DNA of 64,000 nucleotides from Octopus vulgaris (taxonomy: Eukaryota): contig OX597815.1 in the NCBI GenBank assembly GCA_951406725.2, forward strand, positions 38,564,001 through 38,628,000, given 5' to 3'. Made by a program: the position numbers and the translations under genes. Each line of letters opens with the position of its first letter. Position 1 is the first letter of the stretch. Shown here piece after piece: positions 2,796 to 58,612 of the stretch. A model generated the notes under the pieces. The model saw only the letters and a list, made by a program, of their open reading frames with translations, did not search any database and was not told the origin of the DNA.

Positions 2796-4116
2796 TAGAA
2801 TGCTAGAGGCTACTGCGCATTTTTCATTCCATTCTTCTAAATATTTTACACCTTGCGTTTCAAGAATGAATGAATAATGATGATATCAACATAAAAAAAA
2901 ACAGGACACAGCGTTTCCATACAGAGGCGAATTACAATTCTTCGTATCTGCTTTACATTGTCAATCACATTTTACATACCGAATAAATGAGCTTTCCGAA
3001 TCTTATATAGATATATAGATAATTAGATACATACATACATACATACATACATACATACATACATACATACATGTGTGTTTGTGTGTGTGTGTATACATAC
3101 GCATCTACGTACGTATGTATGTATTTATTAAGTTTATTAAGTCAATGTTATCCAACCGTATGCTAACAGTATTTTGATTTCATTTTCAGATATTCTGTAG
3201 ATTTTCTATAGAATTCAGAGCCGTCACTCTTAGTTACGTGTTGTAAACATGTACGGCTATATAAACAATATAATAGAAAAAAGATATCATATGTATATTA
3301 TATATTCTAGCGAAATTTGAGTATTTTACTTATAGTTTTATTCACTTTGTCCCGAAATTTTCGCTACTGATATCACCAAACAGTTCATGAAATCACCATG
3401 TAATAAATTACTTATCGATTTTAATTTAACGAAAACCGTGACGCGCATTATGTAATTTTTCATGGAATGCGGCTAGGCGTGCCTCTCTAATCAATTCACT
3501 AATGTTATAATGGTAATCAGCAGCTACAGACTGTTTAGAAACTTTAATGTATAGTGATTTGTATTTCTTCTCATTGTGTTTATTTAAACATTTCATTGCG
3601 GATATCCACGATATACCATTTGGCTAAGTAAATCTACTTCTCATATAATATTGAATCATTGACAAAAGACTGTTATGATAAGCAGAAAGTGCTGAATAGT
3701 TTAGTTTTTCTTGCGCATTGTTAAGGGCACAATTTAGAATTGCCATCGGTCAATTGGATAATTTCATGTAATTCTTGAAACAGGAATGAGAAAAATGTTA
3801 TTTCTTTGTTTTTGTTTTTAATTGTTAACGGAAAATACTAATAATAATTCTCTAAATGAGATATAGACAGTAACTGCAAAATACATTTGCTGATTTCGAA
3901 AATCTGTTCGACAGCAATAATAATTCTCTAAATGAGATATAGGCAGTAACTGCTCCATAACATAAGGGACTAAAGCCATCTGAATATGGCTAGGGATAGG
4001 GCAGGGTGGTGGGGGTGTTACTGTTGCATTTAGCTCCAGGCGAACATCAACGTCGCCAGATAGGCTTGACACTATCACGGTGTCCTTTATCCTGCAAAGG
4101 GAGATAATTCCCCGAT

Positions 4117-4190
4117 GAAGCGGAAACCACACACGGACCTAGGTTTCAAGGTGTATTGCCTATCATCAACGTGTGGTAGGCCCCCGCTTC
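4117..4190 (-). ncRNA. Type I hammerhead ribozyme (family B copy 1)
   Basis: Reverse complement of the motif at 4301-4374. Confidence 0.8.
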
Positions 4191-4300
4191 CTCGACGAAC
4201 AACCCACTCTGCAGGATATTTATATATAGATTTTCAAGCAAAATACATTTGCTGATTTCGAAAATCTGTTCGACAGCAATAATAATTCTCGTTCGTCGAG

Positions 4301-4374
4301 GAAGCGGGGGCCTACCACACGTTGATGATAGGCAATACACCTTGAAACCTAGGTCCGTGTGTGGTTTCCGCTTC
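4301..4374 (+). ncRNA. Type I hammerhead ribozyme (family B copy 2)
   Basis: cacacg-TTGATGA-t-agg(caataca)cct-t-GAAAC(ctag)GTC-cgtgtg. Extended stem I gaagcgggggcc/ggtttccgcttc with a tac/t loop. Predicted cleavage after C4355. Confidence 0.85.
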
Positions 4375-4662
4375 ATCGGGGAATTATCTCCCTTTGCAGG
4401 ATAAAGGACACCGTGATGGTGTCAAGCCTATCTGGCGACGTTGATGTTCGCCTGGGGCTAAATGCAACAGTAACACCCCCACCACCCTGCCCTGTCCCTA
4501 GCCATATTCAGATGGCTTTAGTCCCTTATGTTATGGAGCAGTTACTGTCTATATCTCATTTAGAGAATTATTATTGCTGTCGAACAGATTTTCGAAATCA
4601 GCAAATGTATTTTGCTTGAAAATCTATATATAAATATCCTGCAGAGTGGGTTGTTCGTCGAG

Positions 4663-4736
4663 GAAGCGGGGGCCTACCACACGTTGATGATAGGCAATAC
4701 ACCTTGAAACCTAGGTCCGTGTGTGGTTTCCGCTTC
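4663..4736 (+). ncRNA. Type I hammerhead ribozyme (family B copy 3)
   Basis: Same motif 362 nt downstream; predicted cleavage after C4717. Confidence 0.85.
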
Positions 4737-4906
4737 ATCGGGGAATTATCTCCCTTTGCAGGATAAAGGACACCGTGATAGTGTCAAGCCTATCTGGCGA
4801 CGTTGATGTTCGCCTGGGGCTAAATGCAACAGTAACACCCCCACCACCCTGCCCTGTCCCTAGCCATATTCAGATGGCTTTAGTCCCTTATGTGGAAAAT
4901 ACTAAG

Positions 4907-5307
4907 TTACTCTTTTACTCTTTTACTTGTTTCAGACATTTGACTGTGGCCATGCTGGAGCACCGCCTTTAGTCGAGCAAATAGACACCAGGACTTATTC
5001 TTTGTAGGCCTAGTTCTTATTCTATCGATCTCTTTTGCCGAACCGCTAAGTTACAGGGAATGTAATCACACCAGCATCGGTTGTCAAGCGATGTTGTGGG
5101 GACAAACACAGACACACAAACATATACACACGCATACATATTATGACGGGCTTCTTTCAGTTTACGTCTACCAAATCCACTCACAAGGCTTTGGTCGGCC
5201 CGAGGATATAGTAAAAGACACTTGCCCAAGGTGCCACGCAGTGGGACTGAACCCAGAACCATGTGGTTCGTAAGCAAGCTACTTACCACACTGCCATTTC
5301 TATGCCT
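4907..5307 (-). mobile_element. SINE family 1
   Basis: Reverse complement of the 35819-36235 consensus, with gtaaaaga tail repeats. Confidence 0.85.
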
Positions 5308-7112
5308 ATAAGTTGCATGATATTCTTAATGATTTTTTTTCTATTAACTTCATATATATGTCTTCGAATTAGTTGTTATTCTAATACTGATTAGATGGCA
5401 GAAATGGTAGACGAACTGAATAAAAGCAAACTTAACAGTACTATTCTATTTGCGTTCTTTGTTCAAATCTCTCCTGGATGTCTGCTTTCACCATTCAGGG
5501 GTCGATATTATTTCTTTCAAAAGAAAGAAATAATAATGTAATTTGTTCAGTTAACCGTACAACACGACAGGCTTAGGGCAAGTAAAAGAAAATCGATATT
5601 TCAGTGTCTGAAGATAGTTTAGTCGGGAAGATTCCCCTCAAGTAGCTGAAATATAAACAGTTCACATTTTGTTGCCAGTGTTGCTGTCTTATGACACTTA
5701 ATTTCTATAGCTATAAATATGTAAATGTATAATATGAAGTAAAATTCAGTGGAATCATTGTATAGTTGATCACGCTTTTATTAGACTGCTTGTATGCTGA
5801 GATCAAAAGTTTTCACTAACTATTAGAAGGCAATGAACAGCATCGTTAATTTGCCATTAAGTGTATAACACGTGGTTTCGTGATCTGACAGACATATAAA
5901 ACAAAAGTCTCTCAGATTATGCATGGTGTTTCTGATAATCATATTAGTATTGCTGTCTTCTCATCACATTGGCCCTTTCTCGGGTTTAACGGAGTGTAAC
6001 TAATTACCAGTAATGTGATTTAATCGGGAAGCAGTACATTACCGGTATTTTGTCTCAACGAATCACTTCAGTTGAATATAGGTAGTATATAAAAATAAAG
6101 GCCACTGTCGACCTTTTTTTCTTTTTCCTTTTTGTCTTTCTAGTTACTATGATTTTTACTTATTTTCACTTGGGGAAGCCGTGATATAATATATTCCTAC
6201 ACAGACACAAGAAAAAACAAAATCATGAAATCTAAAGTATTCTCAACACACCTTGATAACCTTTTTCAAAGATGTCCTTCTAAAGAACGTGATGACACAA
6301 AAATTAATTGAAGGAAGCAGGTCATTGGCTACTAACGCTTTATCAATAATGCAAATGTTATTTACCTTAGTTATGCTTTAATCCCAGGTGATGAATAAAA
6401 TAATGGCTAGAAAACAAAATTAGTAAAAGAGACACAAAGAAAAGGTATAATTCTATGGTGGGTCAGAATCTAATAGGGTAGTTAACGATTTGCAGCCATG
6501 TTTGAATGTCTTTATATTAAGATTGAATAAATAAACTAAGTAACGTATCGTTGTCATTTACTCTGTATAGAGACGGAAACCAAATGAGGAGAGACAAGTA
6601 TTGAACACTGTCGACTCAGGTAGGAATTGAATTAATAAACTGGAAAAGTACTATTTACTTTATATGATGGTGAAACGAAGAGAACTAATTATCAAATAAT
6701 AGAATATTTATTTTGAATAGCTATTATTGAGTATTTAACTCTCTTTATCTCAGAAGAGGTAACACATGAGTTATTAAGCCTATACTTTTCTCAGGAAAAA
6801 CTAATGACATACACTACATGAAATAGAATCGAAAACAGAATCGAATTCTAAGATACAAACAAATCTACTTAGTGGCTTAAATATATACTTAGTGATATTT
6901 GCTTTGAACAAAATATCCAAAATATTTTCAGCAACAATAAGTATCAATCTAGTGAGATTTACTTCACTGCAGTAACAATATCACTTGACACATTAAGATA
7001 TTATAATTCGTTACTTGAAATAAGACACTCTCAGTAGCTAGACATTGTTCCCATTCTAGGTAAAAATAATTATTACTCAGTACATGTATGATTTATGAGT
7101 TTTTTAACATAG

Positions 7113-10559: not shown

Positions 10560-12400
<1,841 letters not shown>

Positions 12401-12782: not shown

Positions 12783-15700
12783 ACATATTTCTTAGTGCTA
12801 TCCTCCTGTTGTTTTATTTGGTTAAAGTACTGTGGTGAATTGCTAGTGTTTTGTTGAAAACAACTGTTGTTTGCTTTTTGGAAGCTGATTGTTGAAATTC
12901 CCCACCTGAGAGGAATTATTGTTATTATATCTTTTGGCTTTTTAAGCCAATTTTGTGAAATAAAAATGGAAACTTCATTGCTTGAACTATTTTCATACTC
13001 ACCTTTGTCTGAAGCAGGTGAAGAAAGAATTTCACCGGCAGTGACGTTGAGAGAATTAAATTTTTTGAAGAGAAAAAAATCACCGGCAGTGTCGCCAAAA
13101 AGTTCGCCGAGGTAGCGGGAAGAAAAGAAACCCAGTTAAACACGAAGAGGAGCAATCTGCAAATGTCAATACTAAAAAAAGAGGGGTCTGAAATTCAAGT
13201 GGCCACTCCGGAAGAAACAACTGACATAGTTAACTGGAGGAGAATCTTGTATAAAACCTACAACATTGGGGGAGAAATGATATATAAAACAGGGGAGAAA
13301 ATTGTGGAAAAATGCCTCAAACCCATTTGACCTGATATTACGTACATTGACCGAGGCAAAAGATTTGGAACGATCGAAGTGAGGTTTAGGTCAGAGGAAG
13401 CAGCCAAGAAGTACTCCTCGGAGACCCTCAGAACGGAGGAGGTGGTTCTTTTTCACGTATATATGGGAAGAAGAACGTCAAAGGTCAAAGTCAACAACAA
13501 CCTCCCTGAAATTGATGCCACCTATTTAGTGGAAGCTATCACGATGGGCCTGGATTAAAAAAATAACTATTCTTCAAGCCTCTGTGAAAAAGGAGGAGAA
13601 TCGGAGGGGAGAATGCTTGACAATGGTAATTCAAGTAGAAGTCGCAACCCTCGAAGAGATTGCAGAAAGTATAAATGTCGGCGGAGAAGAAAGATTGATA
13701 ATATTTGTTGAAGGAAGAAAACCAAGGTGTTTTAACTACGGGTTGAAGGTCCATATCAGGTCGGAATGTAAACCGAAAGAAAAGAAACAACAAGAAGAAG
13801 TATTAGAAGGAAGAACAAATGAAACGCCAGCACCAACAGTGAAAGTAGAGTTAACACCAATATCGACAGAAGGGAGTGAAGAGAAAGACAGAGAGGAGGA
13901 GTGGTCGACTGTTTCCAAAGAAAAAAAGGAAAAAAACACAGACCCTAAGAAAGAAAAAACGAGAATGAAAATGAAAATACATACACGGTCATCAAGGCAT
14001 CGAACAATAGACTGATTAACCGTTTGGCAGCTATTTCATCTGCCAGACGGGTTGAAAAACATCATCAAAAGGCTTTCTCATCTACAAGATAGGCCGGAGG
14101 GATTACGGACGGATTAAGTCCGAATTCTTTCACGACGTAGGCCCTCTCAGAATGGATTTTTCTCCATATATTTACGGGGGCCTACATCCAAATACGCTAC
14201 GAACTCGGGAAAAGGAGAAAGAAAACGAGAACGAAGGAACCTGGAACCACTGATGCAAAGGTAAGCAATGTCAAACATTCATGTAGGTTGTATAAATGTG
14301 CGTGACCTGAGGTCAAGCTGGAAGCAAGGCCGCTTCCTTAATGACATCAGGTCGCATAATTTGGGTGTTATTATTCTTACAGAAACCCGTTTAAAGGGGC
14401 CAAGAGATCTGCTCCAGTAGTTGGATGGCTATGAGAGTTTTTTTTATCTCCTAGCAGTCCTTTTAGCGGGAGCGGGGTGTTGGTCCTTTTAAAAAAAAAT
14501 CGGGTTTCTGAGAAAAAGTTAATTTTTTCAGATCCAGACGGTTGGCTGGTCGTCATGGACTTGACGTTCAGCCGTAGTAAAGTTATAACACTGGTTGCAA
14601 TTTATGCACCCACGCCAACTGGGCAAAGCGAGTATTTTCGGAATCTGGAGAAGTTTCTTGATACATCACATTCTTTAGTTGTGCTAGGAGACTATATCAC
14701 AATTTGCGAGGCACGCGTAGATTATGTTGGTTTCTGTACAGATAGAAAATGTATTCATTGCTTCCTGGAACTGCTAAGCCGCTTTGAGCTAGCAGATCCT
14801 TATAGGCTGGAATATCCGAACGCTCCATTGTGGACATGGTCAAATAGCGACGGATCTTCCAGGTCATACCTAGATAGAGTGTTAAATAGAAAAGCAGATA
14901 GAAAGATAGCTAGGTGTCCACAGTTTCCTCCGGTCACCTGTAAGCTTGACATAGATAAGATATATAATAGGGGCTCCGGCTACTGGGAACTTAATACGTC
15001 CCTTTTGGCGATTAAGGAGTACAGAGATCGGATTAAGATGTTGATTCAGAGGGCATTAACTGGTTCCATTATTAATAATAAATGGTGGTATGCCCTTAAG
15101 CGAGACATTAAATTTGAGTCTATTAGATATAGCAAAGGTTTAATGGCTAGAGATGTTAGGAGGGAATCAGTTTTAGTTAAGGATTTAGAGGAAGCAATGA
15201 AAACTGGCTCTGCGGCTCAGCTGAATGCCAAGAGACTGGCGTTAAACCAGCACCTTGAAGCCAAACACATGGGTTGCATTGTCAGCGCTAGGCTTCGGGC
15301 AGTGGATTGTGAGGGAATCAAGGCCGCAGGATGGGCCCGAGTGGTGGAAGCCCAACGTGGTAATGATGTCACATTCCGATCTTTGACGAACACACAAGGT
15401 AAGTTGATAGACGAGCCCGAGATATATGAGGCTTTTCAGGAGCACTTCACCCAGCTTTTCTGTTGGAGCGGCGAACCGGATAGTAGGAGGGACCTAACGG
15501 ACTCATCGCCGGGCTGCCGCGCCTATCTGGGCGGGACGCGGAGTGCTGTGAAGGGCCGATCACGCCTGAGGAGGTAATTGAGGCTATGGCAGACTGCGGC
15601 GCAGTTAGGGCGCCGGAACTGGATGGTGTATCCTATGAGTTGTATAAGAGTATGCCAGACTTGTTCGGGCACCTGCTGGTGAATGTCTACGCGACCTGGC

Positions 15701-16472
15701 AGCAGAACGGGTTTATTCCCAGATCTATGCGCCGGAGACATTCGGGCCGAAGACCCTGGACAACTTTCAGAAGAGGAGGTTTACCTGTTCGGAACAAGCT
15801 TACAAGGCATGGTGGCTGTGGTCCTTCGACCTGTCTAAGATGCGGGGGGGGGGGCAGGGAAACCGTTCCACATGCTATTGTTCAATGTTCAGAGGAGTCA
15901 GATGTGTGGGTTTATGCTGAACAACTGTTGTCAAGTGCATGAAGAGTAGAGCTATCGACTGAGTCTATAGTAAAAATTGACTCGCCTGATTTCCTTTCGA
16001 AAGAAGGTAAGAATTGTTTTCTCGTTGTAGTAGCAATTGCGAGAGAGGTAATTTGGAGAAGGAGGCTGAAAGGGTTAAAGCCAGGCACTTTCATCTCTGG
16101 CCCTGAATTGGTGAATTACTTCACCTTTCACCTTAGGAAAATAAGGCTAGAGAAAACATGCCTACTGTGAAAATGTTTGAAAATCGATGGAAGAATGTAG
16201 CATGGATGTTGCGTGTGGATGGAACCTCATGAATGCGAAACAGGATGTATCTCAGGTATCAATGGCGAGGCGAGGCTCGTGGGGTCCGAATTATACCCGC
16301 CCCCACTCCATCCGTAATGTCTTCCGATCTGTCCTACCATTCGATTTTATTATATTTTCTTATTTTTGTAAAATTTTTAATGTCATTTTTTGTATAATCA
16401 TTCGCTCATCTGACCCCAACATCAGATTGTATTGTCCCCTCTTTCTTGGCCCCTTGTGGGTAATAAAAAATC
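12783..16472 (+). mobile_element. Tx1/L1-clade LINE with both ends retained but RT core deleted, nested in the PLE 3' repeat
   Basis: ORF1 remnant with decayed zinc knuckle (PRCFNYGLKVHIRSEC). ORF2 starts MSNIHVGCINVRDL at ~14268, with APE motifs SRSYLDR and GYWELN. APELDG..YELY then jumps to the C-terminal CLRC..ETVPH...C. TSD aatttt(t/a)taact at 12771-12782 and 16473-16484. Confidence 0.85.
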
Positions 16473-17371: not shown

Positions 17372-17454
17372 GGTCCCGGGTTGATTCGGGGTTAACCACA
17401 GTAAGTAAGGTACTCAATACATAGCAGAGTAAAATTAATTTATTATATAGAAGG

Positions 17455-17505
17455 AGCTTCTACAGGACTAGTACTGTTTCATTCAAGAGAAATCTTCAGG
17501 AAGCT
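17455..17505 (-). ncRNA. Type I hammerhead ribozyme in PLE terminus
   Basis: On minus: agcttc-CTGAAGA-t-ttc(tctt)gaa-t-GAAAC-ag(tactagtc)ct-GTA-gaagct. Canonical core, with palindromic actagt in loop III. Confidence 0.85.
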
Positions 17506-17879
17506 ATTTAACAAGAATTGTATTAGCATTTATACATTTAGGCAGGTTTAAAGGAGTGGTGGTGGGGGACTTTTTTGGGGGTAGGCATAGCGCAAAATAT
17601 CATACTTGGGGGAGTGGTCAAGGAGTCAGTGGTAAGTTAGATGAAAGAATAGATAAATAAAAAAATAAAAAAATAAAAAAAAAAAAATTAAAAAAATAAT
17701 AAAATAAAAAAATAAATAAAAAAATAAAAAAATAAAAAATAAAAAATAAAAAAAAAGATAAAAAATAAAAAAAAAAAAATATATATAAAAAAAATATATA
17801 TATAAAAAAATATATATATAAAAAAAAGGGGGGATAGAGTTATAGGTAAATAAGGAGATTCTCACTTATACCTATACAC

Positions 17880-17910
17880 ATATGTATACGTATCTACACA
17901 CATATATATA

Positions 17911-17956
<46 letters not shown>

Positions 17957-18258
17957 TATATACACATACACATACATATCTACATACACACATACATACA
18001 CCCGCCCACATATACAAATTTATACACATGCACATGCATATACCTGTCTACACATACACACACGTATATATGCATACACTCACTCCCATGCATGCACGCA
18101 TACACACATGTATATATATACACACGACCACACATACATATATACACAGAAAAATATATATTCATACGCACATACACTCATGCACACACAACACACCTAG
18201 TTCCCTATATACACATATTTACACCTATATATACATACACCCACATACACATATGTAC

Positions 18259-18289
<31 letters not shown>

Positions 18290-18394
18290 CATATACACGC
18301 ATACATATATATACATGTGTGCACATACATACATATACACATATACATACACACACACATACACATGTGTACCTATACATACCTACACATACAC

Positions 18395-18443
<49 letters not shown>

Positions 18444-18836
18444 CCAATACAGGCCCATTCCCTAATTTTAATTTTATTATCTTCATTTATTACTTTTGTT
18501 ATCTTTGATCGCTAGAGCTAAGGATCCTGGCTATGGCAGCATGTCCATTTGTCTGTCTACTAGAAGGCAAGTACTCATTCCCGCACGCACACTCATTAGC
18601 ACGTACATTCACCCATTCGTACACTCATACACATACACGTACGCACGCGTTATATTCATACATACAAACATCTACATACGTTCACGTATATACACATACG
18701 TACTCGTACCTACAGATTCGTGTCTACACTTTAGGAGGCTAGTCTATACATATACACCAATAAATATACATATATATATATATATACACATATACATACA
18801 CACACACACATATACTCCTACATACAGATACATACC

Positions 18837-18884
<48 letters not shown>

Positions 18885-19090
18885 CATACACACACACACA
18901 TATATATACACACACATACATACACATATATATACATACACAAACATATATACACACATATATATATATATATATACACACATACACACACATACATACA
19001 TATACACACAAACACATACATACGTATACATACATACATACATCCATACATCCATACTTACATGCATTTATACGCATACACACACCCCCA

Positions 19091-19127
<37 letters not shown>

Positions 19128-19614
19128 TCACACATACATATACAAATATACGCACACACATACATACATACACGTATACGCATACACGCACATACACATA
19201 TACATGCGTACCCATACACGTGCACACACGCACGTGCATCCATATATATACACACACACACATATATACACGTGTGCAAGCATACATACATACTCATACA
19301 CGCACACATACTTACATATACATATATGCACACACTTACACACATATATACATACACATATACATGCATACATACATATATGCATACATACACATACACG
19401 CACATACACATATACATGCGTACCCATACACGTGCACACACGCACGCGCATCCATATATATACACACACACACATATATACACGTGTGCAAGCATACATA
19501 CATACTCATACACGCACACATACTTACATATACATATATGCACACACTTACACACATATATACATACACATATACATGCATACATACATATATGCATACA
19601 TACACACACGCGCA

Positions 19615-19664
<50 letters not shown>

Positions 19665-19833
19665 TACACATACACATACATACACACATACATATACATA
19701 CACATACACATACATACATATATATATATATACACATATATACACATATACACATACATATATACACATATACATACATATACATACACACACACATACA
19801 TATATACATATACACTGATACACATACCCATAC

Positions 19834-19866
<33 letters not shown>

Positions 19867-19949
19867 TATACACATGCATATACTTATATCTCTACATACT
19901 CACATATAAACATATATATATATACACACATATATACATACATGTACAT

Positions 19950-20030
<81 letters not shown>

Positions 20031-20850
20031 TACATATACACATATACATGTATACATACGCAATAATGATACACATATATACACATACACACACACAGAC
20101 AGATGCATATACATACATATATATATAAATTACATATCTATATAAATACATACATAATACACATATACACACACATATATATACATGCATATACATATAC
20201 AAATATACATACACATACATACACACACACGCGCGCACATACATATACACACACACATATACAAATACATACATACACACATACACACACACGCATATAT
20301 ACATACATGTACACATATACATATATATATATATCAACAAGGGAGGGTAAAGTTAATTAGTTATTAATCAATTTCACCAAGTATTCAGTATGTAAAGGGA
20401 CCATTATTATTTTGAGTAAACAATGTTAGAGGGAAAAAAATTCTCTAAGTAGTGGAAGAGGCTAAAAAACTTTATTGGCTGCTATTTCTAGAAAGTTTAG
20501 TATGTGGCAAAGTAATTTATTTTATTTTACTAAGCCCTAATTATATAATATTTTATACATACATACACATACATAAACACATACATTTACACATACATAT
20601 GCATATACGTATATACACATATACATACAAACACATATACATATATACACACACAGACACATACAAGCACATACATATATATATATATATATACATATAT
20701 GCAAATATACATACATATATATATATTTTTACATGCATACATACACACACACACACATAATACATGCGTATATTCTTACTGTACCCATGCATTTCTATAC
20801 ATATATACATACATACGATACACATATACAAGCGTGCACATACAATATGT
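17880..20850. repeat. Compound (TA)/(CA)/(TACA) microsatellite field
   Basis: Direct reading; source of the many Y/I/H/T and C/V/M ORFs. Confidence 0.95.
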
Positions 20851-20927
20851 GAAAGGTCTTAGGAGAAAAGGTAATCGGGGGTGCTAGGGGAACAGTGGGG
20901 TTGGGGGGGGTTGTAGGGGGGTTGTCA

Positions 20928-22670
20928 TCAATCAGGTTGCCGGGTAGGTCTATAGTTCTTGTAGTTCGCATACTTCTTATGCATGCAATTTGGGGAGTGT
21001 TCTGAAAATTTGTTAAGGAGAGGGCCTTTGGCGAACAAGATCTCTAGGCTCTCTGATATGCATAGGTCACAGCAGGTATGTCCTCCTGTGTACGAGCGCG
21101 CCTTCTGTAGTAGTTTCCACTTGGTCTTGAAGGGGATTGAGTTCCTTTTAAGGTACCAGATGTGGGCGGCGAGGGTAGTTTGGTTGGATTTATCCTGTCG
21201 CCGGAACGAGTGTGTATGTGCGTACCAGCGGGTCTTAAAGCTGTTTGACGTCATTCCAATGTAGGATTTACTTTTATCGTCAAGGCCTGATCTTACCTCG
21301 CATTTATATACTAGGTCCCTCTGTAGGCAGTTGTTGTTGAGGGGGCAGGTGGTTTTATCATGGCAGTTGCAACTGCTATCGGACGTTGGATGGGCCCCGG
21401 AGAAAGTAGATATGTTAAGTTTTTTCACATTGTTGTTGGCTAGGTTCCTGGCTAGATTGGGCGTGGTAGAGTAGGAGAGTCTAATAGTGTTCTTATTTAG
21501 GATAGTGTAGTACTTATGTTGGGTGGGGAAGTGTTTCTGTAGGAGAGTGAAAAAGATCTTAGCTACAGGTGTAGCGACCTCACGGTTGAAGGGGGGTTGT
21601 ACCAGCTAATGTGTCTTCGTCTATTTTTCCTGGGTTGGCGTGGGGCTATACTAGTGTAGGTAATCTTATCTTTAAAACCACTGCGGGCCAGGGCCTCGTT
21701 GTAATAGGGGGCTGCGGCTTTAAAGATATCTTCCGTGGCGGACAGGCTAGAGATTCTAATTGAGACACTTTTTACTAGGTTATCTAATATATTTTTGGGG
21801 TGGTTGGAATTGATATCTATATATCTAAGGGATTCATTTGGTTTGTGGTACGGGTAATAAAGTGAGGTTTTTAAGTCGAGGGTGACATCGAGGAAGTTAG
21901 CCTTTGTTAAGTTGGATTCTAGGGTAATCCTAAGGCCTAAGTTTTTAAAGAAGGTGTGAAGATTTTTCCGGAACCCATCCGTGGTCCTGGGGTTTATATT
22001 GTGGAGGGCGAAAAGGCCGTCATCTCGGTAAAGACCACCGGAAGGCCTGTGAATAGGGTTTTCAGCCTATGGAGGATGAAAAGGCCCACTAGGTCACTTA
22101 TTTCAGCAGAGTCGTTAGCACCCATGCTGACGTCGAAGGGGGTCACAGATTTTTTGTTGATCCAGTGGGATCCGTCATAGAAAAGAAAAGTCTTACGTGC
22201 GTGGAGGATCACATCTTGCTCGGCCTCGGTGATGGTGGAGGACCTCCTGGCGAAGTTAATCGCATCGATCAGCAAGCTCTCCGATATAGAGGCGTAGTAA
22301 TCCTCGATATCCAGTTGTAGGAATCGGGTGTTGCTTTTATCTGGTAAATCCCGGAACCAGGTTATTGCCTCGGAGGTCCTATTCCAGAGTGGAAGGGGTG
22401 AAGCTTCACGCATTTTTGGTAAAATCCTGTCCAGGATCTTCTTGCTGACGGATCCGATGTCAGACTTGGTTGGGTTAATCAAACGGACCGACGGTTTATT
22501 TTCGAAATGGTCTTTGTGGTCTTTCAGGGTGAAGTGTGGGGACTTCACCCTCAGGGGTTCTGTTCGGTCGTCGATTTTAAGGGAGGTGGCAATCTCTTTC
22601 CCGGCCAAGTTGGTTTCAGTTAGCGCTGCGTCGTCTACTTTCTTGTATTTAGCTGTGATGGCGACATCTC
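20928..22670 (-). pseudogene. PLE reverse transcriptase plus GIY-YIG endonuclease, about 3 frameshifts
   Basis: RLINPTKSDIG, LDIEDYYASI, FDVSMGANDSAEISDLVG, GLYRDDG, NFLDVTLDL, WYNPP, CNCHDKTTCPLNNNC, LVYKC...YIG...FKTRW..H, CDLCISE, CMH. Confidence 0.95.
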
Positions 22671-22860
22671 CTAGCTGTGACGGCATCATCAGCAAATAAC
22701 ATTGTAATATACATTGTTTGGCATCTTCTTCTCACTCTTACTGTCACATGCCTTTCAGACATCAGATGATGGAGTGACGGGAAACTGTTCAATCTCTCGC
22801 GCCTGTGTGCCAAGAACAAAATCAGAAACGTCCTGATCAAGGAGATGTTATTTGCTGATA
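22670..22860 (+). mobile_element. RTE-clade RT fragment with a small inverted duplicate
   Basis: Plus frame DGKLFNLSRLCAKNKIRNVLIKEMLFAD; minus MLFADDAV at ~22675-22702. Confidence 0.65.
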
Positions 22861-22945: not shown

Positions 22946-23328
22946 TCTCTCTCTATATAAACGGCAGTTTGTCTGTGCGTGTTTCTGTGTGTCTGTTTGC
23001 TTGTACCCTCACCCTGACCACGGCTTTCAACCGATTCTGATGAAACTTGACACACACATTAGCCCAATGTCATAATTCAAAACTAACGCAGCGAAAATTT
23101 TGAAATGTTTCCCCAGTTCTGAAAAAAATCGATAAATTCGACATGGGGTCGAGAATCAGAAACACAAACCGCGAACTGTCTAGGGGACGCAACTCCACCT
23201 TTTTTAACTAAAAAAAAAATTACCATCATTTTTTTCCATTTTTTTGCTATTTTTTGGCTATAACTCTCTAAAAATGCTTTATAGTTATTTCCCTTACAAA
23301 CCTGAGCAACGCCGGGCGATACTGCTAG
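22946..23328 (+). mobile_element. Non-autonomous Helitron
   Basis: 5' TC, subterminal hairpin cctgagcaacgccggg, 3' CTAG, inserted between A and T, internal ccgattctgatgaaactt motif. Confidence 0.8.
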
Positions 23329-23398
23329 TTTATATATATATATGTAATATATATAATATATATATGTATATATAATATATAGATATAATGTATATATC

Positions 23399-36235: not shown

Positions 36236-36619
36236 ACCGCTGTAAAGTAACCCACTTTATCTCATTTCCTTGTTTTGGTGTGCCTAAAAAATATACAGAC
36301 ACTACCTCGCATCACTAGACAAATGAATTGAAAACTGACAGTTAGCAATCACTGCCATAATTTATCTCACAAGCGAAATTTAAATATGCACATTATGAAC
36401 AGCGTAATCTATTCATATATGCGACATATTGTTTCAGTGTGACTTAAAATTGCTCATATCTAGATTTCTGGGAATGGTGTAAAAAAAGTGTGAATGATGA
36501 GAAAGAATACATGCTAAACTCCAGGAACATAATCAACAATCTTAAACTATTTTTCCATATAGGATTTTTCAAATCAATAATAGAATATGTTGATTCGCTA
36601 GCTTCTGCACGTATTTTTT

Positions 36620-36790
36620 TTTCTCTCCTTGTTTCTCTCCGTGTTTCTTTTCTGTGTATCTTTCTGTTGAAGAGCGTAGGCTCGAAACGTAAAAGACTTG
36701 TTTTATTTATATTCCTGAGCGCCATACTAATACAATTGTTTGTTTGTATTCCACCTGCCTTCGTCTTTTGTTTATTTTCATAAAGATTCC

Positions 36791-36795
<5 letters not shown>
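36620..36795 (+). mobile_element. Short PLE-terminus-like repeat with hammerhead variant
   Basis: Homologous to 54945-55110; tcttt-ctgttgaa-gagc(gtag)gctc-GAAAC-GTA-aaaga at 36659-36696; ends on (TA)n. Confidence 0.65.
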
Positions 36796-36826
<31 letters not shown>

Positions 36827-37599: not shown

Positions 37600-40500
37600 A
37601 TAAGCAAACCGAGACAAAAATAAGATATATATAAGTTCAATACAACCACGTTTCCCCTCCTACAATCAAACAACGTAGACAGAACCATGAAAAAACACCA
37701 AATAACGCCAACTTGAAATATGTATCCTCTGACCAAGTGGCAAACCAAACAAGTAACTCTTTTTTACTGACATACCTGGAAAATATGAAGGCCGACCTAA
37801 GCCAGGAGATCCAGCGAGCCATCACCAACCATCTATGCAAATCACAAGGACCACTCACCCATTACCAACTTCCCTTACCTCGACATTCCTGTTAAATGTA
37901 CGTGGCATCAACCCATCAATTATTGCCCAAAAATGGAAGATCCCATATATAGAGAGTTGGCTTGCCGAAATGGCACATTGCTTCCCTTTCTTTATCCTTA
38001 CCGAGACTCACCTGAACAACACCCATATGGACGCAGAGGTGAAAATAAAAGATTTCACCATTGTTCGTGCGGATCGCACAGACCGAAATAAGGGAGGGAC
38101 AGCCATCTTTATCCATGACTCCTTTTCACTTGATGTCAAGGACACATTTTCCAATGGCTACTGTGAATCGGTATCACTATACAACAAAGCCAATGACATA
38201 ACCATTGTTGGTCTTTACAGGCCTCCCCAGGCACCTCTAAAGTAATTTGAAGAGTGCCTTAGCAAAGTCAAGTCCTTCCTTCGGAAGTACCACTCCGGAA
38301 ACATACTAGTGATGGGTGATTTTAACCTCCCTCATGTGAACTGGCCCACAAATACTCCGAAGTTAGGCAAGTGCTCTACATCAGATAGGGCAGCAGCAGA
38401 ACTGCTCTTTAATCTGATGGATGAGTATTTCCTGACTCAGCTAGTGCTTGAACCAACGAGACAGAATAAAACGATCTTGGATCTGGTATTGACCAATCAC
38501 TCTAGCTACGTTCACAGTATTTCAGTCGAAAAAACTCTCCTCTCAGACCACGACATGGTACTCTGCAATCTTAATTCCCGACATATAAAAACCAAACCAG
38601 CCAATCCCACTCCATGGCACCCATTTGACAACATAAACTTCCACAAAGCGGACTGGGGAACAATCAGAAAGGATCTGTCTTCCATCGACTGGTCTTTTAC
38701 TCTCAATTCCCCTCATATTGAGACCGCGTGGCAGCACTTTGAAAACATTATCACCTATACATGCTCTAAACACGCTCCCAAGAAATCTACTAACACAAAC
38801 AGAAACCGGCTCCCTAAAAAGATAAAAACACTCATCAGGCGCATCAAAAGACTCAACAAAAAAATCAACCAATTAAAATATTCCTACACACAACATCCAC
38901 ATTCAACAACAATGAAAAGACTAGAGCTGGAAAAACTTCATCTGCAGACTAACATGAAAACCTCCATTGAAAATCAAAGAGCTGTGGAGGAACAATGGGT
39001 AATCAAAAACATCAAACAGAACCCAAAAGTGTTCTATTCTTATGCAAATAAGCATAGAACCACTGTCTCACCCATTGGGCCATTGATTGATGATAACGGC
39101 ATTCCCCAACACGATGCTAAAGAAATGGCAGAAATACTGCAGAAACAATACTGCTCTGTCTTCAGTGTTCCCACTGATATTGACGTGAGGGAAACGAACG
39201 AAGTTGACTCCCAACACAAAATCGCAGACATAACCTTCACTGCCACCGACATCGTAGCAGCAATAAATGAGGTCAAACATTACTCTGCTGTAGGCCCTGA
39301 TAGATTTCCCGCTAGTCTCCTGAAGGAATGTAGATATCAACTTGCAGTCCCTCTGACCAACCTCTGGAGAAACTCGTTAGACGCAGGTTATATACCGAAA
39401 CAGTTTCTATCCCAGTCGGTCATCCCGGTTTTCAAGCAAGGAAACAGATCCCTCGCAGTCAATTATCGCCCAATCTCACTCACCTCCCACATCATTAAAG
39501 TGTTTGAAAGAGTGTTAAGATCAAGGATAGCTGACTTCCTGGAGACCCACAAACTCCTAAATTCAAATCAGCATGGCTTTCGCTGTGGCAGGGACTGTCT
39601 AACACAGCTCTTACACCACATTGAAGATGTACTCAAAGCCTTGGGAACAGGTTCGAACTCTGACGTCATATATCTCGACTTCAGTAAAGCGTTCGACAGG
39701 GTAGACCATAACATCCTACTCTCAAAATTGGCAAATGTTGGAATCCGTGGAAAAGTTCTACACTGGATTAAGTATTTCCTGGCGAATAGAACACAACATG
39801 TTGTAGTTGATGGAGTCCACTCAAACCTAGCAAAAGTCACCAGCGGTGTTCCCCAGGGAACTGTTTTGGGTCCGCTACTCTTCATAATTTACGTAAACGA
39901 CCTTTCCAGTGTCGTACATCACTGCAAAGTGAAAATATTCGCTGATGACACTAAGCTCCAGCAAATCGTCAATGAAGAAGCAGACCGAACTCAACTCCAG
40001 TCTGATCTATATGCTGTGAGTCAATGGGCAGACAGAAACAAAATGCAACTGAATGAGGGAAAATTTGAGCTGATGCATTTTGGAAGAAATTCCTCACTAA
40101 AACAACCATACTCTCTTCCTTCAGGGGAACCGCTCACAGCCTCTAACAATATCAGAGACCTGGGTGTAATTGTTGATGACGATCTCAGTTGGAGTGCACA
40201 CAACAACAAGAAGGTCGATATAGCTCGTAGGATGAGTTCCTGGATCTTAAGAACTTTCCGGTCCAAAGAACAAGGTGTCATCATACCACTTTTTTCCTCC
40301 TTTGTACGGCCACACCTTGAATACTGCTGCCCACTGTGGTCTCCTCACACAAGACAAAACATCTCCAGAATTGAGTCACCCCAGAGGGCTCTTACTAAAC
40401 AAATTGAAGGCATGGCTGCTCTCGATTATTGGGATCGCCTTAAAGCCTTGAAACTTTACTCCCTCCAGCGTCGCCGTGAGCGGTACATCATTTGTACGAT

Positions 40501-40913
40501 GTGGAAAATATACCGTCAACTTTGCCCAAACGACCTAAACATTAGCTTCAAGGTTCATCCAAGACTTGGACCACGGGCTATACGTCCCCTGCCAAATTCA
40601 AGATCACAACATACATGTACACTGCAACATAATTTATTTTCCTCAACAGGCCCTGCCCTATTTAACATTGTCCCGAGGGAGATCAAAGAGGAAAAGGATC
40701 CCATCAACTTTAAACAGAGTCTGGATAGATTCCTTCAAAGAATACCAGATAAGCCACCCATAATTGGATACAACTTACCCAACAAGAACTCACTACTTGA
40801 ACAAAACTTGACTTAAACAGGATTCGAATAATCCTATCAGGTGGTGCTATTAAGTTAGACATGGCCTGGACCAATCTCTGGTCGAAACATATCTAAGTTT
40901 TATCTAAGTTTTA
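37600..40913 (+). mobile_element. CR1-group LINE, 5'-truncated
   Basis: Probable ORF1 tail, ORF2, and 3' UTR ending in (tctaagtttta) repeats; 5' boundary approximate. Confidence 0.9.
37835..40816 (+). pseudogene. LINE ORF2 (AP endonuclease plus reverse transcriptase) with one in-frame stop
   Basis: LNVRG, LTETHL, RADR..RNKGG, YRPP, TAA at 38243-38245, then the same frame continues GDFN, LDLVLT, SDH, NYRPISLT, YLDFSKAFD, GVPQGTVLGP, FADD, RPHLEY...WSP. Confidence 0.95.
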
Positions 40914-45495: not shown

Positions 45496-46188
45496 TAGTG
45501 TTGAATGCTTGGTTGTGTTAGGTGGGGTAAAGGAAGGAAGGAAGGAAGGAAGGAAGGAAAATCGTGCGTATAGAGATGTATGCGCGCGCGACCGTGTTTG
45601 TATGAGCACACCTGTATGAGGACGGACATGGTGGGAATACAAGGGATGCCTTTTGTTTAAGGTCAGCCCGTGGTCTGCGTAAGCATCGGTGGTTATGTAC
45701 CCTGTCCTTTGTTATGGAACAGCCAGTGTTGAGGCGCAGTCAATTATTAGGTGGCATATCTGAGTTGTCGGCAGCCAGTGTTTTTGACGTTCACCAAAAG
45801 GGCGTAGCTATGATGGCAGCAATAGGATAGCTTGTATTTTCTGTCCATAGATACTTCAGGCTGGTAGAGAATATGCTGCCTTTCGCGGAGACAGAGTTTC
45901 CGATTGCTGGCACCGGGTGAGTATGATGGGAACTGAATAATGGAATACATTCATACATACATTCTAATGAAGGAGCTTTGGAAACTGGCTCTTCATTGGC
46001 AAGATATCTTAAATATACTGAATTGCGACATACATAAATGCATGCGCATATACATTGTGTGTGCGTATGTTTGTATGTGTGTATGTTTGTGTGTTTGTGT
46101 GAGTGTGTGCATTTTCATTATATGCATAATTGTTATTTATGTTTATTTATTTCTTATTTTAATTATATTGATTTTTATAGTCTTTCAG

Positions 46189-47184
46189 GAACATTGTCAA
46201 AGGGATTTGAATGTAAATATCAGAGGTGTGTAAATCACAATTCATCTCACGGTAGATCACAAGAGGCAAAAGAAGAAAATCTTCACCATATCCCTGATCG
46301 AATTGAATGTATTGAATCAGTTTCAACTGGTGCCACACCCCCGAACCAAAGGAAGTTTACGTCTTTGAAAAAACGCGCTAAAAACTTAAATATTGATGAG
46401 AAAAAAAGCTTGCGCAAAAATTCAACAGATGACGTTTTAAGTTCCCCTCAAATAACATTAGAAAAATACAATACAGAGGACGATGATCCATGGGACATAG
46501 CTGTGACTTTTAATCCGAGTGTCTATGATACAGACCCGAAAGGTATTGATTCAAATGAACTTTCTCTGTATAAACATTCGAAAACTATTAAAGACCACGA
46601 AAATAAGTCACGCGAAGTGTTTGGGAAATCTTCATTTAGAGTATGGAAGCAGTCAGCCATGGATTATTTGAAGTCACACACGAGTAGCCTTCACAGAAAT
46701 AAGACATACCATATTGATATATCACCTGAAACTCCGAAAAAGCAGAAAAACTGTCCTCCCAAAACACATCTTAATATACATTCTGGATGTGAAAATGTCT
46801 CCCTCTCCGATAATCAGTCATCACAAGATGAGGACGATTCACCGTTAAATCAATGTAATAAATCTCCCCTTGAGGAATACAATGATGCAAATTGCAGCCG
46901 CATATACAAATGCCATAATTTAAAGAATTCCTTAAATTGCGAAGAAAAGTCCCAAAAATGGAGTAGGATAAGACGTGCCTTCAGTGAATTATATCCCTAC
47001 CGATGTATAGAAGTACGCCAGGTCGACGAAAACATTTTGTCAGAGTATGTGGAGAAGAAGGAGTCTTCCAGTAGACAATATTCCCGTAGAAGCATTGATG
47101 CAACTTGTTCCATAAAAAACACGTCCCTTACTGATTCGCTCAACTTAGCTACGGTTTCATTTCGAGATAATTTACATTCAAAAG
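46189..47184 (+). CDS. Probable internal coding exon (332 codons, S/K/D/N-rich, product unknown)
   Basis: Open, non-repetitive frame; acceptor tctttcag| and donor AAG|gtaagt; 996 bp with phase 1 at both ends; no TE motifs recognised. Confidence 0.7.
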
Positions 47185-48393
47185 GTAAGTTTTATTTCCT
47201 TATTATGCTTTCTCAACAATTCAGCTGGTGTCATCTATACCACAAGCAATACAATATGAATACAAATTGCTTGTCACAGCTGCAAAACAATTAATATCTT
47301 CGTGTCACACTTGTATGATATAGAACAACTAGACTTCTTTTTCTTTCTTGTAAAACTTTAAAAAAATTATATTGTATCTGCAATATATTTGCATAGCATC
47401 GTTCTTTTATAATGCTCACTCAGCATGTTTTTTCTATTAGTAAGTCATTGAACTATCAAAATACCTACTTCACATCACATTTTATAACATTCTGTTTCCT
47501 TCCAAAGAGTTTTACGAAAACGCGAAACGTGCAATTAAAATATATTGAATATTGTTATAGAAATGCCTATCAGAAAGAAAATTAAGAAATACAATAATAG
47601 AATTTAATTTAAAAACACATAACTATTACCTAGAGAAAAGTAAAGCTACTTTCAAAGACCACTAGCAACAACAGAGCCGCTATGAATTTGCTTCCACTGA
47701 AACTTATTTTTCTCTAAAAGAAAGCAAAGCAAAATAACTACTTTAATAGTAATTCAACTGGAGAAAAAATATATAACGAACACAGCTTTCTCGGATTTTA
47801 TCTCTGTAATTGCACTTGCTTAATCAAATGTTGAGCATAAAAGCGAATTGTCACACCTTTATATTAGATTGTTCCTTGCAAAATTATATGAAAGTGCTGA
47901 TATTCGAACTTCTTCAATTATAAAAAGTGTTTCTATTATATCAGTCAATATTTGATGCAATTCTTTTGCTATATGTTCTGTTTAACTTTGACCTAAAACA
48001 GATCAGTTACTTTCTTTGCAGCATTAATTCTTATCTTATAGTGTTTCATCTCAAGTGCAAGAGCAGTGTTTGTGTGTTTTATGTTTCCATTGGGATAATG
48101 TTAAAATAGAAGTTCAGGTTTCAATTTCTCAAGTAAAAGATTTCAGTATGTTTTTGTTGTGCAGCGTTGTACTTGTATAAGTGGGGTAGTGAGGACAGTA
48201 ATTTTTTTTCTATCTCTTATTGTGAAGAAAATACAACTTAGACGTAGTGTCAAAGCAGATGGTGATCCAAGTTTACACACATGTTTAAGTATATACATAC
48301 ACCTTTTCACACAAACATGTATACACACACACACATACATATATATAGATATATATATATAGATAGGTAGATATATATATTATATATATATAT

Positions 48394-54944: not shown

Positions 54945-55104
54945 TCTCTCCTTGTTTCTCTCCTTGTTTATTCCGTGTCCCTTTTTGTAGAAGAGCGTAG
55001 GCTCGAAACGTAAAAGACTTTTTCTATTCCTGAGCGTTATACTAATACATCTGTTTGTTTTGTACACCACCTGTCTTCGTCTTTTGTTTTTTTTCGTAAA
55101 CTCT

Positions 55105-55110
<6 letters not shown>
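54945..55110 (+). mobile_element. Short PLE-terminus-like repeat with hammerhead variant, between (TA)n tracts
   Basis: Paralog of 36620-36795; cttt-ttgtagaa-gagc(gtag)gctc-GAAAC-GTA-aaag at 54981-55016. Confidence 0.65.
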
Positions 55111-55183
<73 letters not shown>

Positions 55184-56743: not shown

Positions 56744-57129
56744 TATTGATTTCTGATAAGAGCAAGGTCAGATGTGTTATTCTAGAATTTGAGAGGCTTA
56801 CTTGATTAAATTAGCAAATATGAAAGTGAAACTGAATACATAAAAAAAATCATTCTTTGTTGTTGTTTTTGTTATTGTTGTTGTTATTGATGATGATGTT
56901 ATTGGGTTTTGGTTTTTTTTTAGAACACTGCGATGAAAAGAATCGGTAAAATGTCAAGTATTTCATAATTAATAGGAATACATATTCCGAATTAATGAAG
57001 AGAATATATATTGCTACATGCACACAATAGACTAACGTACAGAAACTCACCCAAGCACAGATACACACGCACACATACATACACACATACATACACGTGC
57101 ATACACATACATATATTATTGTTACTATT

Positions 57130-58612
57130 GAGTGAGAGAGCAGGGCATGCCATCACGGTGACACTGGGGTAAAATACACGAAGCCCAGCACACCAATCAT
57201 GACCACCCTTCTTGATCATTCCTAGTGCTCCTACGATCACTGGTATTGTAACCGCCTTGAGATGCCACATTTTCTCAATTTCAATGAGTAGGTCTTTATA
57301 TTTTCTGAGCTTGTCAAACGCTTTCGCTGAGATATTATGATCACAGGAGATGCTCATGTCGATCAATAAGCAAACTTTATTGTTTTGGTCTTTCACAACG
57401 ATATCTGGTTTATTGGCCTTGGTGGTTCGGTCTGTATGTACTGGAAAGTCCCACAGAATCGTTACCTTTTCTCCTTCAGTTACAGCCTCAGGGTGGTGAT
57501 TATACCACTTCTCGGCAGTTTTGATATTGTAATGCCGACTTATTAACCAGTGTAGATATTGGCCAACTCTGTCATGTCTTTGTTTTCTTTGTTTTTTCGG
57601 GGGCATACAGCCGGTTTCAATTGCCCTAGCAGAAGCGTAAATAATTTCATTTAACTCAGTAAAATCAGGTTTTAATTCTTGTATTATTTCATTTGTTACA
57701 TAGTTGCCAATTTGGGTTTGTTTTTTATTTTGGTTTGTATTTGAGAGTTTATGAAGTGGTTCTCTATCATTCATACTTGTATGTCTTACAACTTCAAGCG
57801 TATTCAGGATTTTCTGCCTCATTTCTGCCATAGACTCTCTGTGTTCTTCAGCAAATGCGAGATCTTCAGTTACTGTTGTTTTATCGTTTTCCTGGCTATC
57901 TTTAACAGGTACGATAGAATTTCTTGTATCTTCAGGCCTTTGCGTACTTTGGTCAGATGGCAGTCTTTCAATTAAGCCTCGTGGCGGGCTATACTGTTCA
58001 TCTGATTCTTTATTTCCTTTGTGTCTTATATTTATGTCATTTTCCGTTGCGTGCTTGATCGCGCTTATTTCACTGTCTATGAGTCTGTTATTTCTAAGGA
58101 TATCCCTCCTCACATTTGCTAATTTGTTCTTGTCCAAATAGGGCCTACTGTCTTGATTCCGTGTTCTCCATATACTGTAAGAGTTTGCGGTGTGTCTCTC
58201 TTGAGATGGCCTACCTAATGCATAGTAATAAGCGTATATTACTTCTTTATACTCTTCTCGGGTCCATTTGTTCCGCTTACATTTTTCTTTCTGTGGTGGT
58301 TGTGGTGGTGAACTTGGAGGGCTCGAGTTGGGGGATTTCCCGTTCAAGTGACCATCCATGTCCGTATTCGGAGAAGAGTTTGTGCCAGTTGATGACTTTT
58401 CGATCCCAGGCTGGCTCCTCCCTGGGGGACGCGCTTCCAGATTAACCATAGGACAAGCGATTTGGTATATTGATTTAGTTTTCCTTTTAGTTTCCAAAAA
58501 CATTTTGGTGCTACGATAATGTTATCATTTCTGAGCTTTGATTGGCTCGTGGGGAGACGGCCATCATTGCCGTTACAATTATAATCGTACCATTATAGCA
58601 GCCGTAGTCGGC
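57130..58612 (-). mobile_element. R4/Dong-like non-LTR element lacking RT; N-terminus fused in frame to the restriction-like endonuclease
   Basis: ORF 56992-58503: KWTREE..EVIYAYY, LANVRRDIL, then RHDRVG..LHW, LWDFPVHTDR...NKPDIVV..D...K..KY.DL, PVIVGALG; flanked by (TAA)-like repeats. Confidence 0.85.

Follow-up and report, generated by a model that had tools for sequence, protein, structure and literature searches.

A 362-nt hammerhead retroposon family in Octopus vulgaris with insertion ends resembling those of Penelope-like elements

Positions 3830 to 4905 of the window, as we call the 64,000-nucleotide stretch of Octopus vulgaris contig OX597815.1 analyzed here, hold an inverted array of non-coding 362-nt units with hammerhead motifs, which belongs to a new retrozyme family, F1, within the known group of animal non-LTR retrozymes. 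Its structure is best explained by a 362-nt hammerhead retroposon RNA that would cut itself, be ligated by the host and be copied into (TA)-rich DNA by the reverse transcriptase (RT)-endonuclease of a Penelope-like element (PLE), an account that we consider likely. The element itself belongs to a known kind. New here are the rule of fixed ends and the fusions at cut sites, both described below, through which the helper, the geometry of integration and the function of PLE hammerheads, called 'still unclear' by Craig 2021, become directly testable. Statements on published work refer to passages of the papers cited.

The initial annotation of this DNA had proposed a retrozyme-like hammerhead RNA that is mobile, non-coding and multimeric and that entered the genome in a single event with an enzyme borrowed from a retroelement, and this picture is supported. 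It had left open whether the family was already described: the kind is known (PMC7229834; bioRxiv 10.64898/2026.07.22.740005), and F1 is new. The literature on octopus retrozymes, Penelope and hammerheads, on hammerhead-Penelope chimeras and on twin priming, with subscription papers and repeat databases outside its scope, yielded no published description of F1 or of the cut-site fusions. Labels coined in the present analysis are F1-F7 for retrozyme families, N1-N8 for Neptune-type PLEs and H1-H3 for Hydra-type PLEs; the clade names follow linker motifs as in Craig et al., and N1 and N2 also have Pfam RT and GIY-YIG matches.

The window insertion and its family

Monomer position 1 is set at window 4291, and the predicted cut follows monomer position 65. 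The insertion comprises the following features:

3830..3841, no strand: left target-site duplication (TSD); its last 2 nt match the element too (other insertions outside (TA) have 11-14 bp duplications)
3840..3877, minus: outer end of the inverted arm, monomer 248-285, stopping at site B; then a jump to 325 with 2 nt in common
3876..4290, minus: main inverted arm, monomer 273-362 then 1-325; one predicted cut is crossed
4117..4190, minus: type I hammerhead motif, core at 4169, predicted cut after 4136
4291..4893, plus: direct arm of 1.67 units (1-362, 1-241), stopping at site A
4301..4374, plus: first plus-strand type I hammerhead motif (core at 4322), with U3·G8, a U·U at the foot of stem II and a palindrome in loop III; cut predicted after 4355
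4356..4717, plus: predicted cut-to-cut 362-nt monomer; rod pairing of the 5' and 3' ends plus a branched domain
4532..4578, plus: 'tail', bounded by the 3'-end sites A (at monomer 239-244) and B (at 283-288), which are the putative RT start sites (compare PMC11167929)
4663..4736, plus: second plus-strand hammerhead motif, core at 4684, predicted cut after 4717
4894..4905, no strand: right TSD, a 12-mer identical to 3830-3841

The arms are 99% complementary, differ at 4 positions and meet 5'-to-5' at 4290/4291, and a direct repeat links 4291-4531 to 4653-4893. We recovered the three type I motifs, the plus-strand GTC sites 362 nt apart (ending at 4355 and 4717), the head-to-head join and the 12-bp TSD of the initial annotation; the non-canonical core, a 76-nt restart in the left arm and the four differences between arms are additions to it. 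A motif scan of the 64 kb returned the three F1 hammerheads and one unrelated PLE hammerhead at 17499(-), and no others.

The left arm reads 273-362, 1-325 and then 248-285, with 3840-3877 running from monomer 285 to 248 before the jump to 325; its cDNA would therefore have started near 285, run for 38 nt and restarted at 325. Tandem duplication after insertion is ruled out as the source of this restart, as positions 286-325 could not lie outside a site-B end. Priming by microhomology is ruled out at the right end of the window copy, where element and target have no base in common; they share 2 nt at the left end, and apparent overlaps within (TA)n are unreadable for microhomology.

The window copy is among the few F1 copies with a readable duplication, most copies sitting in (TA)n. 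One contig of public reads reaches 3793 on the left flank, and its last 77 letters fit the filled and the empty site equally (four runs aligned to 3200-5500, with matches swamped by the neighbouring SINE). Pieces of the unit were present in all four of these runs, and the stretch was matched in 20 public runs (8 studies, 4 organism labels), 13 of them at half its words or more. Run X1, whose kind we guessed, gave on window 4455-4846 a 373-nt contig that is one closed period (343 + 30) of a variant without 19 nt; a tandem array would look identical.

A SINE-like repeat of very high copy number begins directly after the right TSD (4906-5310). Elsewhere in the window lie what we take to be a mariner-like fragment and three LINE fragments (2182-2664, 13530-15942, 37757-40816 and 62275-62664), one with an 856-aa RT frame (Pfam match), and a 418-aa frame without Pfam match at 46038-47294, which we assume may be a host exon.

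Across the genome (2.8 Gb, 227 contigs), the monomer search gave at least 164 matches (best 40 of 1,458 candidates); the exact window core occurs 58 times and a degenerate core has 4,186 related matches, both with a control of 0. By hand count, F1 makes up 49 of the first 100 degenerate-core matches listed; these lie at 20 loci within 63 Mb, a density that points to several hundred F1 loci. There are at least five sister families; units measure 355-362 nt in F2-F5, and F2 is ~70% identical to F1 across the entire unit. Arrays have one core per 362-nt unit and up to 9-10 units. The window unit has a longest ATG ORF of 67 codons, compared with 35 for another subfamily and 28-30 for the sisters; a coding role for the 67-codon ORF is ruled out, since it is not conserved. 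No terminal repeats beyond the units were found in the F1 insertion.

Further hammerhead retroposon families (L284-L306, L239-L253, L331-L334) include F5 (360 nt, young, with a 59-nt tail), the older F7 and one with a GUU site. At L119:4533-4596, an abundant repeat, presumably Helitron-like, contains an F2 piece that ends near site A; the repeat lies without the F2 piece at window 22950-23330. A ten-unit F2 arm (L254) is near invariant save at three linked sites around site A, whose three haplotypes alternate as a mosaic.

The known animal non-LTR retrozymes (coral, mussel, axolotl; PMC7229834) share with F1 tandem non-coding units of 150-450 bp (350-390 bp in mussel, against 362 nt), a type I hammerhead, GC below 50%, TSDs above 4 bp and a highly paired fold. 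Their expression and circles have been shown, whereas F1 is known here from genome sequence; the main text of that paper mentions neither inverted arrays nor a microsatellite target nor a cephalopod, whereas F1 forms inverted, (TA)n-targeted arrays. PLEs are named there as no more than a candidate helper, while F1 insertions themselves carry a PLE footprint. Xenopus and other vertebrate retrozymes (Li, Clavereau, Pollet 2026, bioRxiv 10.64898/2026.07.22.740005) are non-autonomous hammerhead repeats, mostly of fewer than 7 units, that co-occur with Neptune, Poseidon and Hydra. The evidence there is co-occurrence and pLTR similarity, and the arrays are attributed to local amplification; F1, in contrast, matches no sampled pLTR, and its arrays were inserted as such. 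That study covers vertebrates without molluscs, and its main text has no end or tail analysis. A giant squid genome paper notes 235 Rfam hammerheads.

Hammerhead fold, RNA template and cut-site fusions

The window core is UUGAUGA (U3 opposite G8); stem II has U·U at its base, and a palindrome closes stem III. F1 thereby departs from the canonical type I hammerhead as judged by a CUGANGA core, paired 10.1-11.1 and an Rfam score. F1 cores vary between UUGAUGA, CCGACGA and UUGAUAA, and the core of sisters F3 and F4 is CUGAUGA. Rfam gave no hammerhead at seven other loci among 150 of 211 matches listed, these being microsatellite noise. The Rfam search that the initial annotation had suggested likewise returned no match in the window or at 3800-4950, and the hammerhead call therefore rests on motif and covariation.

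None of 100 shuffles folded better than the linear cut-to-cut monomer (z -4.8), whose two ends pair in a rod, and circular folds gave z -3.5 to -7.7 in 6/6 units. The heavy self-complementarity noted initially is thus borne out, and its named helices form, except that ttgctg/cagcaa is not part of the predicted fold. Six named helices are 93.9% paired across 16 natural units of F1-F4, compared with 31-39% when slid, and the relatedness of the sequences inflates the shuffle control; pairs were counted for these helices only, because RNAalifold mispaired the core on a four-family alignment that is off in its middle third. Double (compensatory) changes occur in stems I, II and III, a long-range helix (178-184/251-257) and the hairpin before site A (F1-F4), and this covariation supports the predicted hammerhead. 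Loop III changes often, and 9/9 recurrent hexamers and 204/216 locus-motif counts are self-complementary; the predicted F1 hammerhead is likely dimeric via this loop. In axolotl, ribozymes whose loop III is a palindrome or whose stem II starts with U·U cut as dimers (PMC7229834). Against activity, only one of nine predicted Xenopus retrozyme dimers cleaved in vitro (bioRxiv 10.64898/2026.07.22.740005). Our literature search found no paper on U3·G8 hammerhead activity. PLE hammerheads of this genome (L120-L128, L202, L335-L359) have CUGAUGA, CUGAAGA, CCGAAGA, CCGACGA, UUGAUAA and UUGAAAA cores and mostly palindromic loops III.

Variation among units bears on the RNA that was copied. Arms longer than one unit make up 73/117, in a locus selection that favoured arms holding a core. 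A monomer bottleneck is favoured by these long arms, by the clean passages across the cut given below and by the uniformity of units: minority subfamily alleles are in all copies within a locus in 308/328 cells, a 9+3-unit array (L273) has almost no variation, and five rare alleles are common to all copies, across both arms. Five other rare alleles are common to some copies only; a five-unit arm (L275) alternates between G and A, and L061 and L067 switch subfamily between neighbouring monomers. Private variants in the window copy (monomer 128), L020 and L027 recur in phase from the outer ends of both arms. The window variant is common to the outermost units of both arms and missing from the inner unit, those of L020 and L027 are not in the nearest fold-back register, and that of L029 is out of phase, at a CpG.

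A monomer circle is excluded for the window copy, L020 and L027 because their private variants are common to both arms in phase and not to all units. The suggestion of reverse transcription around a circular or multimeric RNA thus stands for a dimer or multimer and fails for a single monomer circle at the window copy. Circular dimers or ligated multimers would fit all partial-sharing, alternating and switching loci; uncut linear transcripts would fit most of these, and they fit the three in-phase private variants equally well. Partly shared private alleles may also come from gene conversion or assembly error. Across all copies, the window copy included, a monomer circle alone is insufficient, and dimers or linear multimers would be needed too.

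The three in-phase loci also speak for the view that a PLE moves uncut linear read-through RNA, with the F1 hammerhead slow or dispensable and arrays growing by DNA duplication after insertion, which we regard as unlikely. Variants common to neighbouring units in L006 and L069 and the non-canonical core agree with it; the Anolis PLE uses mainly uncut RNA, with cleavage not needed and no reads ending at the hammerhead cut in the published passages (Frangieh 2024, PMC11167929), and local amplification is the model of bioRxiv 10.64898/2026.07.22.740005. Yet compensatory changes have preserved the hammerhead stems and the palindrome of loop III, the two-armed 9+3-unit array is almost invariant, subfamily alleles are fixed across units, and sister families with a U3·G8 core were joined at the cut.

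Such joins came to light at one core match that continues into the 3' end of Neptune N3. Scanning for cores with two A/T bases right after them returned 42 matches (control 0), and the 37 examined comprise 18 F7 copies, whose stem I begins with A/T, 6 point mutants, 1 internal deletion, 1 LINE cap and 11 fusions. These 11 represent 8 events (L261/L281, L297, L298-L299, L309, L310, L311, L314, L315); in each, the retrozyme breaks off at its GUC and the sequence goes on from the predicted cut of the partner. As the search pattern itself dictates where the retrozyme ends, the evidence comes from the partner side, which agrees in 8/8. Neptune PLEs are the partner in 6/8 events: N3 three times (at least two subfamily variants), N1 once and N8 twice (with different retrozyme variants); the other two partners are hammerhead repeats. 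Seven of eight joins have no shared base and one is ambiguous by 3 nt, and two events carry the U3·G8 core, as in the window copy. The A/T filter misses partners starting with G or C, H1-H3 and N2 among them, and the fusions therefore cannot name the helper. No F1 fusion at the cut was found, the only F1 match being a point mutant, and a search for the reciprocal fusion (PLE 5' part to retrozyme start) gave 4 matches against 7 in the control, none of them a chimera.

At L312, a sister retrozyme piece ending at GUC caps a 5'-truncated LINE in a (TAA)n tract. The LINE has a match at window 56992-58521, and the whole resembles a chimera of the U6/L1 type. Copies of the minimal-hammerhead repeat that is the partner in L311 lie at window 36600-36823 and 55021-55158.

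Both the fusions at two cuts and the subfamily switches in L061 and L067 could also arise if cut linear monomers were never ligated and the PLE RT jumped from one RNA 5' end to the next 3' end, making arrays and chimeras alike, and the window copy does have one internal jump. We consider this improbable: indels are present in 0 of 204 passes across the cut, arm 5' ends do not pile up there (2/117 at positions 60-72, 4.2 expected), and L298/L299 and L315 have the same intact junction in both arms, which independent jumps would not predict.

Ligation is the preferred reading, as the fusions point to in vivo cleavage and RNA ligation before reverse transcription in the sister families. Their simplest reading would be that a cyclic-phosphate end and a 5'-OH end were ligated and the product was then reverse-transcribed, in parallel to U6/L1. 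In the U6/L1 chimeras, a retroelement RNA with a 5'-OH was likewise joined to a cyclic-phosphate RNA end before its retrotransposition (Moldovan 2019, PMC6789731); the sister fusions would differ in having both ends ribozyme-made and a PLE as carrier, and the likeness holds for the sister families, not for F1. RtcB makes U6/L1 chimeras (PMC6789731) and circularizes animal retrozyme monomers in vitro, with some dimers as a further product (PMC7229834).

Insertion ends and the borrowed enzyme

Ends were analyzed at 68 distinct F1 loci, after removal of 18 ids (overlapping fetches; one segmental duplicate). With site windows drawn after the data were seen (A, 228-246, mostly 239-244; B, 282-289), 112/117 F1 3' ends lie at A or B, ~44 nt apart, and (TA)n adjoins 103/117. 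The permuted ends of the initial annotation thus turned out to be fixed: a genome search for copies, permutations and TSDs finds many dispersed copies and TSDs, and ends at A or B instead of free permutation.

Two arms are present at 49/68 loci, where A pairs with B in 44, A with A in 1 and B with B in 0, and 4 have an end elsewhere, so that 44/45 classifiable loci are AB. One-armed loci end at A in 9, at B in 9 and elsewhere in 1; free choice would therefore give half AB, and the excess has p 1.3e-12. A position-ordered sample (20 F1 loci, 3 in common with the first set) gave AB in 16/16 two-armed loci, as did 12/12 classifiable loci in F2, 4/4 in F3, 2/2 in F4 and 6/6 in F5, with queries for F2-F4 that favoured site B. 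Autonomous Neptune and Hydra PLEs have one site at each end in 8/8 two-armed copies checked. Duplications of 12-13 bp flank 3/5 F1 loci with both flanks outside (TA)n, several sister loci have 11-14 bp, and arm junctions overlap mostly by 0-5 nt.

PLE hallmarks are an inverted 5'-truncated arm, partial tandems and a one-sided tail of 30-40 bp (Craig 2021; Arkhipova 2013, PMC3846280). Neptune, Hydra and Naiad target (TA)n (Craig 2021), and two internal RT starts bound the tail of the Anolis Poseidon PLE (Frangieh 2024, PMC11167929). Like F1, Neptune and Hydra PLEs and Anolis Poseidon thus combine partial tandems, an inverted arm, a tail, (TA)n or AT-rich targets, a type I hammerhead and two internal RT starts; their TSDs are 8-10 bp, and passages of these papers (Craig 2021; PMC11167929; PMC3846280) describe a tail usually on one end, without the strict one-A-one-B rule or cut-site fusions. 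An autonomous PLE carries an RT and GIY-YIG ORF between pLTRs, whereas F1 is a closed 362-nt repeat without ORF. The ends fixed at two sites therefore name the enzyme class, and by its footprint the borrowed enzyme is very likely a PLE.

No sequence common to F1 and a PLE pLTR or tail was found in 115 PLE loci (H1-H3, N1-N8), an incomplete sampling of PLE families, save neighbouring retrozyme copies; since no sampled pLTR matches F1, sequence does not name the helper. Tails measure ~40 nt in N1, 43 nt in N8, 70 nt in H2 and 150 nt in H3, and the F1 tail falls in the 30-45 nt range of PLE-mobilized elements. Tail length therefore favours a Neptune-type helper, which we think on balance probable; a Hydra-type or other PLE is a substantial possibility.

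PLEs also lie in the window itself. A frameshifted Hydra-type PLE (H1, CxCx5C linker) spans 17400-22760 (-), with a pLTR hammerhead at 17499 and many near-identical copies elsewhere with ORFs up to 722 aa, and a second, decayed Hydra-like fragment at 10704-12322 (+) is broken by trinucleotide repeats. N1 (L194-L200, L206) is a young Neptune-type family with intact 781-aa frames, an upstream frame of up to 479 aa overlapping the start and a UUGAUAA core.

That the units are pLTR debris of an unsampled autonomous PLE, with no independent element, is highly improbable. Xenopus retrozymes do match PLE pLTRs (bioRxiv 10.64898/2026.07.22.740005), and we scored the best 150 of 6,136 GIY-YIG and the best 150 of 7,028 Hydra-RT candidates. 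However, 0 of 85 F1 loci continue into a PLE ORF, the nearest PLE piece being 193 nt away across a TA tract, which agrees with the initial annotation's free arrays as opposed to terminal repeats on a PLE ORF; site B is followed by the next unit and no ORF, and the 355-362 nt unit and its fold are kept in five families. LINE mobilization by ordinary target-primed reverse transcription is next to negligible: twin priming in L1 gives a similar 5'-to-5' inversion, short overlaps and 11-14 bp duplications, and one sister piece does cap a LINE insertion (L312), but F1 has no poly(A) or fixed 3' terminus, both its outer ends fall at two internal sites, just like those of the PLEs in this genome, and its (TA)n target is that of Neptune and Hydra.

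Proposed mechanism and its meaning

We propose that read-through transcripts would be cut, probably as hammerheads paired via the palindromic loop III, and that the resulting 2',3'-cyclic-phosphate and 5'-OH ends would be ligated, in RtcB fashion, to give circles, dimers or multimers. Both DNA strands would then be cut ~12 bp apart by a PLE protein that probably acts as a dimer, and each strand would be primed from a different site (A or B) of one RNA. Both cDNAs would run through the ligated junctions and join 5'-to-5' with 0-5 nt overlap, yielding an inverted array. At the window copy, the B-primed cDNA would have restarted after 38 nt on a template that held two different monomers (dimer or multimer).

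A broader reading, which we put forward tentatively, is that hammerhead cutting and host ligation form a working germ-line system of RNA recombination. It would turn retrozyme and Penelope RNAs into circles, circular dimers and cross-family chimeras, and a dimeric PLE protein would copy one RNA from two fixed sites onto both strands.

Two questions are addressed by these data: which enzyme moves animal retrozymes, through the footprint of F1, and what PLE hammerheads do, through genomic evidence from the sister fusions. The one-A-one-B rule constrains PLE integration, with strands primed asymmetrically, probably by one dimer on one RNA, and the interchange of U3·G8, C3C4 and U3-A8 hammerhead cores occurs in a live family. 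A 360-nt RNA with defined starts and young, intact Neptune and Hydra ORFs in the same genome offer a small substrate for in vitro work. If the broader reading is true, this genome would preserve direct fossils, the first of their kind, of Penelope hammerheads cleaving in vivo and of an animal retrozyme undergoing rolling-circle retrotransposition.
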